Shown here piece after piece: positions 6,085 to 9,240 of a DNA stretch of 64,000 nt. Made by a program: the position numbers and the translations under genes. Below the pieces are notes generated by a model. The model saw nothing but the letters and a program-made list of their open reading frames with translations. It did no database searches and had not been told where the DNA came from. This stretch comes from Roseomonas sp. (GTDB lineage: Bacteria > Pseudomonadota > Alphaproteobacteria > Acetobacterales > Acetobacteraceae). The DNA is taken from the NCBI GenBank assembly GCA_051860065.1, contig JBHYEQ010000002.1:277773-341772 (forward strand), written 5' to 3'. The number at the start of each line of letters is the position of its first letter. Positions within the stretch are counted from its first letter, which is position 1.

Positions 6085-7536
6085 ATGTCGGACATTGCCG
6101 TGCAGGCCGGGTTGCTCGACAGGGCCATGAAGCGCGTCACCACCCTGTGGCGCGATATGGCCGCCGCGGTGGGCGTTTCCGACCCCGACCCCGACCTCGC
6201 GGCCCGCCTGGCCGCCTGCCTCGAAGCCCGCGGCGGCGAGGTCTCGGCCCGCAACCGCGCCGCCGGGCTGGCCGAAGCCTATCGTACCCTGGATCCCGAA
6301 GGGCGTACGGATTTCCTGCGCGCCCTCGCATCCTTCGATTCCGACGCCGATGCCGTTGCCCGGGCCATGGAGAAGGTGGCCGCCGCCGCCGATGCCGCCG
6401 AGCGTGCCGTCGCCACGGCCCGCCTGCGCCGCGCGCTCGAACCGCCGCGCATCCGCCTGCTGACGGCCTTCGCTGCCATCCCGGACGGGGTGAAGTTCCT
6501 GGTGGATCTGCGCGCGGACCTGCTGGCGCGCCTGGACGGCGACAAGCTGCTCCAGGCGCTGGAGACCGACCTCAAGGGGTTGCTGGCCGCCTGGTTCGAC
6601 GTCGGCTTCCTGGAATTGCGCCGGATCGACTGGCATTCGCCCGCCATCATCCTGGAGAAGCTGGTCCAGTACGAGGCCGTCCACCGTATCCGATCCTGGC
6701 GCGACCTGCGGAACAGGCTGGAATCCGACCGCCGCTGCTACGCCTTCTTTCATCCGCGCATGCCCGAGGAACCGCTCATTTTCGTCGAGGTTGCGCTGGT
6801 CCAGGGCATGTCCGACAACGTGCAGCGCCTGCTGGACGACAAGGCGCCGATCCTTGACCCGAAGCTCGCCGACACCGCGGTGTTCTATTCCATCAACAAC
6901 TGCCAGCGCGGGCTGGATGGCATTTCCTTCGGCAACTTCCTGATCAAGCGCGTGGTCGGGCTGCTGTCGGATGAGTTCCGCAACCTCAAGGCCTTCTGCA
7001 CGCTTTCGCCGATCCCGGGCTTTCGGCGCTGGCTCGATGGCGCGCTGGCCACCGGGGCGCTGACGCTGGCCGAGGATGAACGCAAGGCCCTGCTCGCCGC
7101 CTCGCCGCCCGCCCTGGCGCTGCCGGCGCCCGATGGCGACGCCCTGGCCGAACCCGCCGCCTTCCGATCGGACGACGGGGTCGCAGCCCTGCAGCGGCTG
7201 ATCGCGCGCCGCGGCTGGTCGCGCGACGACGCCGCGGCGAAGGTGCTGGAACCGCTGCTGACCCGGCTCTGCGCGCGCTACCTCGCGAAGGAGGATGCGC
7301 CGGGCCGCGCCGGCCGCGCGCGGGATCCGGTGGCACATTTCCATTTGTCTAACGGCGCGCGCATCGAGCGGCTGAACTGGCGTGGCGATACCTCGGACAA
7401 TGGCATGCGCCAGGCGCTGGGGCTGATGGTGAACTACCTGTATGACCCCGACCGCATCGAGGAGAACCACGAGGGGTATGTGGGCGAGGGCAAGCGGGCC
7501 GTGTCGAGCGCGCTGAAGAAGCTGGCGAAGGGGTAG
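6085..7536 (+). CDS. malonyl-CoA decarboxylase
   Basis: LEKLVQYEAVH, DRRCYAFFHP, FYSINNCQRGL.GISFGNFLIKRVV, TLSPIPGF, DPVAHFHLSNGA. Confidence 0.95.
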   Translation: MSDIAVQAGLLDRAMKRVTTLWRDMAAAVGVSDPDPDLAARLAACLEARGGEVSARNRAAGLAEAYRTLDPEGRTDFLRALASFDSDADAVARAMEKVAAAADAAERAVATARLRRALEPPRIRLLTAFAAIPDGVKFLVDLRADLLARLDGDKLLQALETDLKGLLAAWFDVGFLELRRIDWHSPAIILEKLVQYEAVHRIRSWRDLRNRLESDRRCYAFFHPRMPEEPLIFVEVALVQGMSDNVQRLLDDKAPILDPKLADTAVFYSINNCQRGLDGISFGNFLIKRVVGLLSDEFRNLKAFCTLSPIPGFRRWLDGALATGALTLAEDERKALLAASPPALALPAPDGDALAEPAAFRSDDGVAALQRLIARRGWSRDDAAAKVLEPLLTRLCARYLAKEDAPGRAGRARDPVAHFHLSNGARIERLNWRGDTSDNGMRQALGLMVNYLYDPDRIEENHEGYVGEGKRAVSSALKKLAKG

Positions 7537-7550
7537 CGCAGGCGACGATC

Positions 7551-7920
7551 GCGCCGAACCTGTCAGCCGCGCCAGCGCGCCAGTGCACGGCGCGAGGGCA
7601 AGCCGGCTGGACGGCCGGCGCCCGCCTCTTGAGGGTCGCAAAACCACGTCGGATCGTGCGGATGCATGATCCGGGAGCGCACGGCGCCACCGCGCCGGGA
7701 CCATCAGCCGCGTCCAGCGCGCTGGTGCATGGCGCGAAGGCAAGCCGGCCGGATGGCCGGTGCCTGCCGCTTGAGGGTCCAACACAGACTCGGATCGAGG
7801 CTTGCCTCGATCCGGGAGCGCACGGCGCGACCGCGCCCAGACCATCATTCGCCGCCAGCGCGCCAGTGCACGGCGCGAAGGCAAGCCGCGCGGATGCGCG
7901 GCGCCCGCCGTCTGAGGGTC
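7551..7920. repeat. ~142-bp structured tandem repeat, about 2.6 copies (REP/BIME-like)
   Basis: units end in GAGGGTC at 7637, 7779 and 7920; shared core CCAGCGCGCYRGTGCAYGGCGCGARGGCAAGCCG; several internal hairpins. Confidence 0.85.
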
Positions 7921-9130
7921 AACTGAAACTGTGCATCATCGCCCGCACCCGCGGGTAGATCTCCTGCTGCCAGCGCCGCCCGGCGAACACGCCGTAATGC
8001 CCAACCCCCGTCTGCAGATGATGGCTGCGCATCGACACCGGCACGCCGCTGCACAAATCCAGCGCCGCCATGGTCTGGCCGATACCGCAGATGTCGTCGC
8101 GCTCGCCCTCCACCGTCATCAGCCCCATGCGGCGGATGGCCGCCGGGCGCACCGGCCGGTCGCGCCATGTCAGCCGGCCATCGGGCAGGTCATGCGTCTG
8201 GAACACGCGCTCGATGGTCTCGAGGTAGAATTCCGCCGGCAGGTCCATCACCGCGAAATATTCCTCGTAGAAGCGCCGATGCGCCTCCGCCGCCGCTGTG
8301 TCGCCATTGGCGATGTTGCGATACTGCGTCTCGTGCGCGGCGATGTGCCGGCCGATGTTCATGGACATGAACGCCGTCAGCTGCGTCAGCCCCGGATAGA
8401 CCCGCCGCCCCGCGCCAGGCGCGGTCCAGGGTACGGTCGCGATCAGGTTGCGCGCGAACCATTCGATCGGCTTCGAGCCGGCCAGCACGTTCACCTTGGT
8501 CGGGTTCATCCGCGTGTCGATCGGCCCGGCCATCAACACCATGCTGCGCGGGCGGGCCGGGTCGCGATCCTCGTGCATCAGCGCGCCCGCCGCCAGCACC
8601 GCGACCGAGGGCTGGCAGACCGCCAGCACATGCGCGCCTTCGCCCATGGCGCGCAGGAAGTCCATGATGTGCTCGACATACTCGTCGAAGCCGAAGCGCC
8701 CGGCGGAGACCGGCGCGTCGCGCGCATTGTGCCAGTCGGTCACGTACAGGTCGAAATCGGGCAGCAGCGTTTCGGCGGTGTCGCGCAGCAGGGTGGCGAA
8801 ATGGCCCGACATGGGCGCCACCAGCAGCAGGGGCGGCTGGCGGCCCGGCGCGTCCTTGGCGAAGCGCAGCAGCGAACCGAAGGGAGTGGATCGCACCACC
8901 TCCTCGCGCACAGCGACCTCGCGATTGCCCATGCGCGTGGTGGCCAGGCCGAAATCCGGGCGGCGATGCGTCGTGCGGATCGACGCCATCAATTCCCAGG
9001 CCGCGATGGTGCGGCGCATGGCCGGTGCGGCGGCGGCGCCCGCGGCGCGCATCAGCGCGGCCAGGCCGCCGGCCTGCTGCCGCAACGGGTCCATGGCCAG
9101 GCGCTGGGCCTCGTAGAGCGCGTAGATCAT
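7919..9130 (-). CDS. phaZ: intracellular polyhydroxyalkanoate depolymerase
   Basis: LLVAPMSGHFATLLR, YVTDW.NAR, catalytic-type AVCQPSV, TVEGERDDICG.GQT, GHYGVF.GRRW. Confidence 0.93.
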   Translation of the reverse strand: MIYALYEAQRLAMDPLRQQAGGLAALMRAAGAAAAPAMRRTIAAWELMASIRTTHRRPDFGLATTRMGNREVAVREEVVRSTPFGSLLRFAKDAPGRQPPLLLVAPMSGHFATLLRDTAETLLPDFDLYVTDWHNARDAPVSAGRFGFDEYVEHIMDFLRAMGEGAHVLAVCQPSVAVLAAGALMHEDRDPARPRSMVLMAGPIDTRMNPTKVNVLAGSKPIEWFARNLIATVPWTAPGAGRRVYPGLTQLTAFMSMNIGRHIAAHETQYRNIANGDTAAAEAHRRFYEEYFAVMDLPAEFYLETIERVFQTHDLPDGRLTWRDRPVRPAAIRRMGLMTVEGERDDICGIGQTMAALDLCSGVPVSMRSHHLQTGVGHYGVFAGRRWQQEIYPRVRAMMHSFS

Positions 9131-9240
9131 CGACCCCCGCTGCGACGTGCGGTCCGGGCTATCCCGCGACTGGCCGCCGATGGTAATGCTGCACTGCAAA
9201 CGCGCTGCGGAGCAACACCGGCGCGTGACAGGAGAGCGGC

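Follow-up and report, generated by a model that had tools for sequence, protein, structure and literature searches.

A lineage-restricted family of structured intergenic DNA repeats in the Neoroseomonas clade, probably REP/BIME-like in lifestyle

The tandem array between the convergent genes mcd and phaZ in a 64,000-nucleotide stretch of Roseomonas sp. DNA (hereafter the window) is probably one array of a dispersed, non-coding DNA repeat that is restricted to the Neoroseomonas clade and combines a REP/BIME-like lifestyle with an architecture of its own. The host genome is a 5.2-Mb draft with 71% GC that belongs to Neoroseomonas. The best-understood intergenic repeats of bacteria are those that a transposase (RAYT) accounts for. 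The family described here is large, old, and structured and comes without any of the mobility genes tested, which makes it a clean case for the spread and persistence of repeats. It also affects its neighbors by rewriting gene ends: dnaJ and other genes receive a predicted ribosome-binding site, and the ends of convergent genes, such as phaZ, are recoded.

Positions 7526–7926 of the window contain three head-to-tail units, and a repeat search finds three copies with spacings of 142 and 141. TRF reports the array at 7535–7920 (period 141, 2.7 copies, 80% matches, score 476), by far the strongest tandem array of the 64-kb window. A preliminary description of this DNA had recorded a tandem repeat of about 142 bp with periods of 142 and 141 between convergent mcd and phaZ, and TRF, the repeat search, and the covariance model all find it. 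It counted about 2.6 units; the covariance model places three, the first truncated at its 5' end. The unit bounds given by the covariance model (cmsearch) are 7526–7643, 7650–7785, and 7791–7926. The features of the array and its neighbors are as follows.

6085–7536, + strand: mcd, malonyl-CoA decarboxylase (Pfam PF05292, E 1e-104, and PF17408; ORF list)
7537–7635, + strand: unit 1 core, 5'-degenerate and without a 5' hairpin of its own (cmsearch 73.8 bits, 5'-truncated)
7602–7619, + strand: unit 1 GC hairpin H6, GCCGGCT-GGAC-GGCCGGC, with one T.G pair (sequence, helix covariation)
7636–7649, + strand: unit 1 A-rich tail, which is the linker, TCGCAAAACCACGT (tail logo)
7650–7673, + strand: unit 2 5' hairpin H1, CGGATCGTGC-GGAT-GCATGATCCG (sequence, MFE fold, H1 covariation)
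7679–7777, + strand: unit 2 core with the near-invariant blocks GCGCCACCGCGCC, GGCGCGAAGGCAAG, and TGAGGG (cmsearch 128 bits)
7744–7761, + strand: unit 2 GC hairpin H6, GCCGGCC-GGAT-GGCCGGT (sequence, helix covariation)
7778–7790, + strand: unit 2 tail, which is the linker, TCCAACACAGACT (sequence)
7791–7814, + strand: unit 3 5' hairpin H1, CGGATCGAGGC-TT-GCCTCGATCCG, a perfect 11-bp stem (inverted repeat, 100% complementary)
7820–7918, + strand: unit 3 core, closest to the family model (cmsearch 7791–7926)
7885–7902, + strand: unit 3 GC hairpin H6, GCCGCGC-GGAT-GCGCGGC (sequence, helix covariation)
7919–7932, no strand assigned: unit 3 A-rich tail, TCAACTGAAACTGT; read on the minus strand, it encodes the TGA stop of phaZ and the four codons before it
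7919–9199, − strand: phaZ, PHB depolymerase, convergent with mcd (Pfam PF06850, E 4e-90)

Unit 1 starts directly after the mcd stop codon (TAG, 7534–7536), is 63% identical to unit 2, and ends in GAGGG at 7631–7635. The H1 of unit 2 has one G.T pair, and its tail together with C7791 forms GACTC, a GANTC site. Unit 3 reaches 148.1 bits, the highest covariance-model score among all sources searched, and its H6 is enclosed by a 3-bp helix of GGC (7880–7882) with GCC (7907–7909). The H6 stem is thus present in all three units, and H1 occurs both in a G.T form and in the perfect form at 7791–7814, as the preliminary description had it. The same source had the last unit overlapping the phaZ stop codon; the terminal GAGGG of unit 3 (7914–7918) abuts that stop (TCA on the + strand, 7919–7921), and the A-rich tail covers it together with the final codons. 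PhaZ here ends in MMHSFS*, and relatives without the element at this site have MMQGFV* or MMQGYQ*. In one relative, the gap between mcd and phaZ is 16 nt. The array simply replaces a gap of about 16 nt between two convergent stops, with the last four phaZ codons rewritten.

One unit of the family measures about 141 nt and runs from an A/C-rich leader through H1, GGAGC, the core, H6, and GAGGG to an A-rich tail. H1 has a conserved foot (CGGATCG/CGATCCG) and a variable top, the core of about 99 nt holds three near-invariant blocks and one variable stretch, and H6 combines a hypervariable GC stem, a loop of GGAT, and a 3-bp helix around the stem. The tail extends about 10 nt beyond GAGGG, often with GACTC at its end, and A makes up 46–81% of positions +3 to +9 in the tail logo compared to 14.5% genome-wide; the 5' leader is in general only 30–50% A. 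In BLAST comparisons, the leaders upstream of H1 were locus-unique sequence and no part of a longer element. Core lengths vary from 96 to 100 nt, and since the differences are not multiples of 3, the family is non-coding.

Successive nhmmer iterations over the host's own genome gave 62, 131, and 136 matches. The 136 core copies occupy 105 loci, of which 80 have a single copy, 20 a doublet, 4 a triplet, and 1 a quadruplet; the 25 arrays of two to four units are all direct, with one orientation per array. The family is carried by 13 of 25 genomes of the genus, under the public names Neoroseomonas and Roseomonas, and the smaller genomes of the genus are entirely without it. When 81 genomes representing 80 genera of the bacterial family were scanned with the covariance model, only the genome studied here and one other genus matched, plus a single marginal hit, and the repeat was found in none of 16 other families of the class. 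Public records with matches bear the names Neoroseomonas, Roseomonas, and Roseococcus, and no plasmid or phage record matched. Pattern matches in metagenome-assembled genomes (MAGs) of Betaproteobacteria, Pyrinomonadaceae, and Solirubrobacterales were not confirmed by the covariance model and are attributed to chance. The best Rfam match, an unrelated viral tRNA-like element, scored 20.4 bits (E 0.17) against a gathering score of 40, and the literature searched held no description of the repeat. It is a new REP/BIME-like family, set apart from RIME and the Caulobacter repeats by description only. An undescribed BIME/REP-like mosaic or miniature element had been among the early suggestions, and the copies found here bear it out.

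The stems of these copies vary together. RNAalifold on a MAFFT alignment of all units gave only fragments because stems of unequal length were misaligned, and it was replaced by a mutual-information scan on gap-free cores and a covariance-model alignment of 113 distinct copies from many species. In the H1 and H6 stems, 94.7% of cells are paired compared to 74.0% in shuffles; the H6 helix is 97.3% paired across the family, and in 16 of the 20 pairs both positions vary. Covariation scores 0.406, compared with 0.107 for shuffled data (none of 500 shuffles reached it), with slid controls at 0.01–0.07. The compensatory changes first noticed within the single array are therefore strong across the family, and the mutual-information scan found no covarying pairs outside the two hairpins. 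A third proposed stem, CGCGCC-N7-GGCGCG, does exist but gives no covariation signal because its arms are near-invariant across the family.

Compensation had been taken to imply selection on RNA or single-stranded DNA structure. The compensation itself stands; the implied selection is not required, since covariation also fits the exchange of cassettes between copies or correction on a hairpin template and does not have to reflect selection acting copy by copy. There is almost no linkage between H1 and H6 types (mutual information 1.895 versus 1.692 ± 0.066 in shuffles), and the two modules reassort between copies. In one orthologous pair, for example, the 3' halves are identical and the 5' halves about 50% identical. 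Orthologous loci of different species hold different, perfectly paired stems, a natural experiment in which selection on structure can be set against templated correction or cassette exchange.

Copies lie in the short gaps that separate ORFs. At 86 of the 105 loci, overlap with a called CDS is 30% or less. The element lies antisense to the genes on either side at 43 loci, sense at 30, and convergent at 28, and it is depleted in divergent (promoter) gaps (2 of 105 loci). At 41 of 87 loci, a distance of 0–12 nt separates GAGGG from an ORF boundary, and where it precedes a start codon, as at dnaJ, the usual spacing is 9 nt. These statistics use a GC3-based ORF caller (83% coding fraction) with approximate starts. 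At about 9–10 loci, GAGGG stands 8–12 nt upstream of the start codon, at dnaJ in at least six species, and the element is predicted sometimes to supply the ribosome-binding site of the next gene, as for dnaJ. The tail is 41–49% A even where it is coding, and in genes that abut the element, the final four codons have a GC3 of 0.48, compared to 0.84 genome-wide (p = 1e-6). No sigma-70-like site was found in the element and no intrinsic terminator (GC hairpin and U tract) on its strand; on the opposite strand, the H1 of unit 3 followed by AGTCTGTGTT is a weak terminator match.

Copies turn over between species: some are gained, others lost, and some multiplied into direct arrays. In four species, the ybeY-corC junction has no element, and stop and start codons overlap as ATGA; in at least four others, including the own genome, the junction is filled and reads GAGGG-N9-ATG/GTG. 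An operon junction reading TGAccATG is empty in four species and filled in antisense here, and in another species it is also filled, with a different junction and different stems. The genes found between inward-facing copies are housekeeping genes: trpA, nth, cytochrome c, and a TRAP-transporter solute-binding (DctP-like) protein.

These observations can be joined in one proposed mechanism. The element would spread at the DNA level, unaccompanied by the mobility-enzyme families tested. Homology-driven exchange among more than 100 copies would keep the blocks uniform and swap hairpin cassettes, and unequal recombination would create and resize the arrays. Pairing could be kept because the two arms move as one piece and the hairpin serves as the template for mismatch correction, or because a protein requires the hairpin. 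A "junction-safe" 3' end may be what lets insertions persist at gene junctions. In the sense orientation, GAGGG and the A-rich spacer would re-create a ribosome-binding site about 9 nt before the next start codon; in antisense, the tail would give the convergent ORF a few codons and a stop.

Another reading, possible though doubtful, is a cis-acting RNA module under selection for RNA structure at each locus, with hairpins that protect or process mRNA 3' ends and a GAGGG and A-rich spacer that act as a portable translation-initiation region. REP hairpins are known to protect or process mRNA 3' ends. The GAGGG positions before dnaJ and the other starts speak for such a module, and so does the dnaK-dnaJ locus, where copies from six genomes have pairwise block identities of 91%, 100%, and 98% beside 45% for the upstream spacer and 84% for the dnaJ start, making the blocks more conserved than the coding start. 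Such conservation at an orthologous locus could reflect a host function under purifying selection instead of homogenization. The same orthologues have five different H6 stems, all perfectly paired. Units also fold better than shuffles (z −2.0 to −3.7), but the two strands do so about equally well. Family copies occur on contigs of an activated-sludge metatranscriptome, which is unstranded and may include DNA carry-over. Against an RNA role stand the 43 antisense loci compared to 30 in sense, the lack of any Rfam match, and the stem mispairs, 29 G.T versus 43 A.C, which show no RNA-type wobble excess. As to the early suggestion of a structured non-coding RNA, nothing in the data favors RNA over DNA structure, and there is a hint of the DNA level. 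A closing helix of CCCAGAC with GUCUGAGGG, which would sequester GAGGG, appeared in single-sequence folds and was dropped for want of covariation.

Somewhat less probable is a functional gene-junction cassette, placed precisely at stops and starts by a targeting mechanism and held under purifying selection. A protein, encoded by the host or by the element, would bind its invariant blocks, its stems would change only when compensated, its GAGGG and A-rich end would set translation of the next gene, and GANTC would tie some copies to cell-cycle methylation. A separate reading, that the array is a set of putative sites for a host DNA-binding protein or a regulatory site linked to GANTC methylation by CcrM, whose working parts would be the invariant blocks and GANTC and whose hairpins would be cruciform or architectural, seems unlikely. 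For it speak two blocks, GCGCGACCGCGCCC (14 nt) and GGCGCGAAGGCAAG, both near-invariant between species and 91–100% identical at an orthologous locus, and the CGGAT motif repeated in both H1 arms and the H6 loop. GANTC is 11-fold enriched in the tails (21 observed, 1.9 expected), but those 21 are only 17% of the 121 tails, and the blocks have no known binding protein. Presence at one and the same junction varies by species, and the family is missing altogether from the smaller genomes of the genus, two points against an essential regulatory role.

Mobilization by a RAYT, as in a REP/REPIN family, or by an IS200/IS605 transposase acting on a gene-less derivative as single-stranded DNA through two subterminal hairpins, is largely refuted and must be rated very improbable. 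The family does look the part: it is extragenic, high-copy, and not found on plasmid or phage records; it has a hairpin near each end, no terminal inverted repeats (the ends read CGGATCG... and ...GAGGG with A-rich sequence), and no target-site duplication at 83 loci; and its missing wobble excess is consistent with DNA-level structure. In the hairpins and the plain ends it resembles the PATEs, gene-less IS200/IS605 derivatives. However, the RAYT domain PF01797, whose search gave matches in 6 of 14 control genomes, was absent from the own genome and from 31 genus genomes, including a closed 5.5-Mb carrier, so the nearby RAYT/TnpA-REP gene that had been suspected at the outset is absent from all 31. 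Carriers have neither a Y1 transposase nor a TnpB, the only TnpB matches being a 71-aa zinc-ribbon ORF present in non-carriers too. IS200/IS605 elements insert 3' of a fixed 4–5-nt target and show an orientation bias with replication. Here, neither end adjoins a fixed 4–5-nt motif and the flank is only compositionally A-rich. Strand counts by thirds of the closed genome (10+:4−, 4+:8−, 7+:7−) form a weak pattern for which origin and terminus were not located. GC skew in the draft, which flips sign within contigs and has no association with element strand, is uninformative. The arrays, moreover, are direct and not inverted doublets.

Other enzymes fare no better. IS110 is present in only some carriers, and a search for reverse transcriptase (PF00078) found none in the own genome or in 11 of the 12 carriers covered; none of RAYT, TnpB, IS110, and reverse transcriptase tracks the presence of the element. 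Clustering of ORFs near copies at 80 loci of other genomes gave no recurrent transposase or associated gene, and the clusters were only housekeeping paralogues and orthologous neighbors, such as dnaK/dnaJ. Because no mobilizing enzyme or mechanism was found, "mobile" refers here only to species presence or absence and copy number. A SINE-like element, with RNA copied into DNA, would explain the A-rich 3' tail and the 5'-truncated copies, including unit 1 of the mcd/phaZ array, but is highly improbable given the lack of PF00078 in the own genome and most carriers, the lack of target-site duplications, and 3'-truncated copies as common as 5'-truncated ones.

The dispersed DNA repeat that we prefer shares much with the known systems. 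Like REPs, BIMEs, and REPINs, it is high-copy and extragenic, has hairpins with compensatory stem variation and clustered arrays, avoids divergent gaps, gave no match among plasmid or phage records, and persists in its lineage. A REP is a single imperfect palindrome of 20–40 nt (Bertels and Rainey 2011, PMC3116915; PMC3337134). The Neoroseomonas unit, in contrast, has about 141 nt, two different hairpins, and a conserved, non-palindromic core of about 60 nt, and its arrays are direct instead of alternating or inverted, with RAYT in 0 of 31 genomes searched. REPINs are inverted REP doublets, and a RAYT gene is usually flanked by its REPs. In a BIME, REPs alternate in orientation and a few defined linkers connect them; here each array has one orientation, the linker is the A-rich tail, and "mosaic" applies only to the reassortment of H1 and H6. 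MITEs are marked by terminal inverted repeats and a target-site duplication and share their ends with a parent IS, whereas the Neoroseomonas repeat has neither inverted-repeat ends nor duplications (83 loci), nor a recurrent transposase nearby (80 loci).

Likenesses to less closely related systems also exist. The mycobacterial interspersed repetitive units (MIRUs), reportedly described by Supply et al. in 1997, are likewise tandem intergenic units at ORF junctions that touch stops and starts and vary in number between relatives. MIRUs carry small in-phase ORFs and have a single orientation relative to transcription; the Neoroseomonas repeat is non-coding, strongly structured, and found in either orientation. 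Caulobacter intergenic repeats are said to be associated with GANTC sites (Chen and Shapiro, in 2003), and RIME is an intergenic repeat of Rhizobium/Sinorhizobium. By description only, both resemble the present family in their length of about 100 nt or more, alpha-proteobacterial hosts, large palindromes, and CcrM (GANTC) association; the confinement to the Neoroseomonas clade and GANTC in only about 17% of copies set it apart, again by description and not by sequence. Putative mobile promoters, which Nijveen et al. reportedly presented in 2012, are also small repeated cassettes directly upstream of start codons that bring expression signals. The Neoroseomonas repeat would bring a ribosome-binding site and not a promoter, and more than half of its copies face away from the adjacent gene. 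The repeats could serve as typing markers. In draft assemblies of the genus, they sit at contig ends.

The tandem array between mcd and phaZ is an ordinary member of a lineage-specific family of structured intergenic repeats, recognisable in kind although extraordinary-looking, and the finding is real and well above chance. The periods of 142 and 141 bp claimed in the preliminary description are present: TRF reports one tandem array at 7535-7920 (period 141, 2.7 copies, 80% matches, score 476) and nothing else scoring above 73 within the 64-kb window, and a gap-free repeat search locates three copies at intervals of 142 and 141 nt. A covariance-model search finds only these three units of the element in the window. 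The array occupies the entire gap separating the convergent stop codons of the two genes.

Features at the mcd/phaZ junction (window coordinates)
6085-7536, plus strand: malonyl-CoA decarboxylase gene (mcd)
7534-7536, plus strand: mcd stop codon TAG; array unit 1 begins immediately after it
7914-7918, plus strand: last GAGGG of the array, abutting the phaZ stop
7919-7921: phaZ stop codon (TCA), directly after the last GAGGG
7919-9199, minus strand: PHB depolymerase gene (phaZ)

The unit was defined by lining up every copy together with its flanks. The repeat period of the ~142-bp unit first described stands, and its limits do not, the true unit being a circular permutation of it.

Parts of the unit, in order
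Leader: ~10 nt, A/C-rich and G-poor
H1 (5' hairpin): foot CGGATCG...CGATCCG, sometimes CGGCCCG...CGGGCCG; upper stem variable; loop 3-5 nt
GGAGC
Core: ~99 nt, with GAGGG as its 3' end
Tail: ~10 nt, A-rich

Within the core lie three near-invariant blocks (GCGCGACCGCGCCC, GGCGCGAAGGCAAG and CGCCCGCCGYYTGAGGG), a variable stretch at positions ~20-52, and a GC hairpin, H6, with a stem of 6-7 bp, a GGAT loop, and an enclosing 3-bp helix of GGC with GCC. The loop is conserved (GGAT in 76/114 copies, GGAC in 17/114). Hairpins of the CGGATCG type are almost confined to the element, 84 of the 96 in its own genome adjoining a core. Tail positions +3 to +9 are 46-81% A, compared to 14.5% for the genome. 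The motif methylated by CcrM in alpha-proteobacteria, GANTC, is present (usually as GACTC) at +1..+20 in 21/121 tails, compared to 1.9 expected from genome frequency; one example is the GACTC at 7787-7791 of the window.

A BLAST search with one unit gives 70 matches in its own genome (assembly GCA_051860065.1; 5.25 Mb, 50 contigs, 70.9% GC), and an iterated nhmmer search, run to convergence, finds 136 core copies at 105 loci: 80 singles, 20 doublets, 4 triplets, and 1 quadruplet. Some copies are located at contig ends, where assembly-breaking repeats are expected. All the multi-unit loci found by nhmmer are direct arrays with a period of ~141 nt. At four loci (contig coordinates C16:93,354-93,735; C11:97,123-97,422; C14:143,700-144,001; and C4:18,009-18,355), pairs of copies stand head-to-head with their 5' hairpins facing, 100-250 nt apart; these pairs are REPIN-like, whereas the usual arrays are direct.

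By BLAST, the element is present in 13 of the 25 genomes searched in the same genus and in none of 16 that represent other families of the class. Among genomes G001-G024 of the genus, the carriers are larger (mostly 4-6.3 Mb) and the non-carriers smaller (2.3-4.1 Mb), which suggests either two sub-clades or a loss tied to genome reduction. When 81 genomes representing 80 genera of the family were scanned with the model, it matched the own genome, one more genus (38 hits), and one marginal case. A pattern scan of public species genomes matched Neoroseomonas terrae, soli, rubea, marina, lacus, and oryzicola; Roseomonas nitratireducens, rosulenta, alba, and further strains; and a Roseococcus record and Acetobacteraceae MAGs. 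The covariance model did not bear out three pattern matches from unrelated MAGs, and plasmid and phage collections held no match. As the preliminary description had surmised, the searches made here point to an undescribed family: Rfam gave no match (best E 0.17, far under the gathering score), and a literature search found no paper on repeats in Roseomonas. It falls in a known class, the bacterial interspersed intergenic repeats.

The stems (a) and (b) of the preliminary description, which correspond to H6 and H1, can be read in the sequence just as they were given, and 7791-7801/7804-7814 is a perfect 11-nt inverted repeat. The compensatory change claimed for both stems is borne out by a covariance model built from 45 own-genome units and searched against 80 loci of other genomes plus the window (114 hits). 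In the model alignment, 94.7% of cells are standard pairs, compared to 74.0% when shuffled; 16 of 20 pairs (377 cells) are changed on both sides, compared to 11.2 pairs in shuffles; and the covariation score is 0.406, a value attained by 0 of 500 shuffles, compared to 0.107 in the shuffles. Sliding the partners by 1-3 columns leaves a score of 0.01-0.07. Five positions of H6 alternate between C-G and G-C at about even frequency while 97-98% paired, and the middle pair of the enclosing helix flips too (G-C 71, C-G 23). In an unbiased scan for mutual information over 146 distinct 99-nt cores, no further pairs covaried, so stem (c), CGCGCC-N7-GGCGCG, previously taken for a third covarying helix, is conserved sequence without covariation support. 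The same applies to a closing stem, CCCAGAC/GUCUGAGGG, proposed by single-sequence folds.

The supported stems contain 29 G.T and 43 A.C pairs and the two strands fold about alike (z-scores -2.0 to -3.7), so no RNA strand is singled out, and the pairing constraint looks symmetric, as DNA would give. The element may act in cis as RNA, protecting 3' ends and assisting translation initiation, but this role is weakened by the mixed orientation of the copies and by the lack of the G.U excess.

Gene contexts, from a simple GC3-based gene caller and with orientation relative to the element strand, place 43 loci between two opposite-strand genes, 30 between two same-strand genes, 28 between convergent genes, and 2 between divergent genes, so nearly every copy adjoins at least one gene 3' end. 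The element is packed against the ORF boundary by its 3' end: at 41/87 loci, a start or stop codon is 0-12 nt away from GAGGG, and the H1 foot is equally close at only 3. Ahead of downstream same-strand genes, the distances from GAGGG are 8, 9, 9, 9, 9, 9, 11, 11, and 12 nt. The cluster at 9 is Shine-Dalgarno spacing, at which the element donates its GAGGG. For opposite-strand genes, GAGGG and the stop codon are separated by 0-3 nt at 10 loci and by 4-12 nt at 21. The tail is still A-rich where it is coding (41% A), and in the genes it overlaps, the GC3 of the last four codons is 0.48 vs 0.84 genome-wide (p = 1e-6). For example, PhaZ ends here in ...MMHSFS*, and relatives that lack the element at this junction have ...MMQGFV* or ...MMQGYQ*; at a different locus, a protein keeps its end (ELVI*) with codons changed to rare T-ending ones.

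Species differ in the presence and array length of the element, as seen when the concatenated flanks of 12 loci were searched in nine related genomes and the matching regions fetched. The ybeY/corC junction is a 4-nt ATGA stop/start overlap in four species and is occupied by one or two units in no fewer than four more, own genome included. Filled sites read GAGGG-N9-ATG or GTG, and their stem variants and upstream filler differ, which indicates that more than one insertion took place. The operon junction TGAccATG is empty in four species; in the own genome it is filled, antisense, with GAGGG abutting the stop codon, and in a further species it is filled with another junction and other stems. 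The mcd/phaZ gap is 16 nt in one relative and is taken up by a different sequence in two others, and the genes are non-adjacent in several. At one site, the array measures 0, 1, about 2, or 3 units across species. Neither a target-site duplication nor a terminal inverted repeat is visible at the element ends, and the stretch from the upstream gene to H1 is unique at every locus.

A second, unrelated repeat family in the relatives (hairpin CCAAAGGCC-NNNN-GGCCTTTGG, a G run, and a GC hairpin GGAGGGGC...GCCCCTCC) sits at the same junctions: the mcd/phaZ spacer of G003 (locus L166) and the junction of own-genome C3:64197 (loci L179, L181, and L182). Such junctions seem to be common landing or tolerance sites for several repeat families.

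Six genomes share the position of the element in the dnaK-dnaJ spacer (own genome C1:563,600-563,950; loci L045, L080, L090, L100, and L183 of relatives). A conserved terminator-like hairpin, GCCGCCCGGTCCCCACAAGGGCCGGGCGGC, directly follows dnaK. Since the element comes directly before dnaJ, the ribosome-binding site of dnaJ would be element-borne across the genus.

Mean pairwise identity at dnaK-dnaJ, six genomes
Block 2: 100%
Block 3: 98%
Block 1: 91%
First 30 nt of dnaJ: 84%
H1: 84%
H6: 75%
Variable stretch: 66%
Spacer just upstream of the element: 45%

Among these six copies, H6 takes five different stem sequences, each perfectly paired. One orthologous pair differs in H6 by one compensated swap, G-C to C-G, with the copy otherwise ~95% identical; another has wholly different H1 and H6 set among conserved blocks; in another, the 3' half is identical and the 5' half ~50% identical. 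Family-wide, H1 type and H6 type are nearly unlinked. These patterns reflect either strong purifying selection on blocks and pairing, locus by locus, or, more simply given more than 100 copies per genome, frequent inter-copy exchange that would keep the blocks uniform and move the hairpins as cassettes. The dozen or more stem variants would still have to arise by compensated change, which selection or hairpin-templated correction could supply.

No tested mobility gene tracks the element. The RAYT or TnpA-REP gene envisaged in the preliminary description is missing: Y1/HUH transposases (RAYT, PF01797, and IS200/IS605 TnpA) are absent from the own genome and all 31 genus genomes searched, a closed carrier included, and the positive controls worked. 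A TnpB probe found only a 71-aa zinc-ribbon ORF, which non-carriers have too; IS110 transposases occur in only part of the carriers, the rest having none or sub-threshold matches; and reverse transcriptase is absent from the own genome and 11/12 carriers. At 80 loci of other genomes, no recurrent transposase-like gene adjoins the copies. The genes bracketed by inward-facing copies are housekeeping genes, and orientation bias along the closed relative is weak.

The element is like REP/BIME in lifestyle and like MIRU in occupying ORF junctions, and it does not pass the defining tests for either. It would spread as DNA through an agent other than those tested, with inter-copy exchange probably homogenising the copies, and copies at junctions may survive by virtue of a 3' end that re-creates a ribosome-binding site or supplies an early stop. 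For the specialist, the interest lies in the lack of a recognisable mobilising enzyme among those searched for, in how precisely the element packs against start and stop codons, and in orthologous stems that are hypervariable yet always compensated.

A search of an activated-sludge metatranscriptome with window 7725-7918 (run X24) returned contigs with element copies from related organisms, one of them 423 nt long with a word depth of ~53 in unstranded data in which DNA carry-over is possible. These copies may be transcribed, on the sole RNA data, unstranded and from another sample.

Upstream of one copy, outside the window, lies a ~130-nt non-coding stretch, GTCGCCTACAGTTGCGGGGGCAGCCGCGG...CGCGTTCCCGTTTCAGCCCTTTCGGGCCACCGGCGCATGGG (own genome C6:~242,640-242,770; loci L149-L152). 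It is highly conserved in five species, the DNA after it is unalignable, and the stretch resembles a leader RNA such as a riboswitch.
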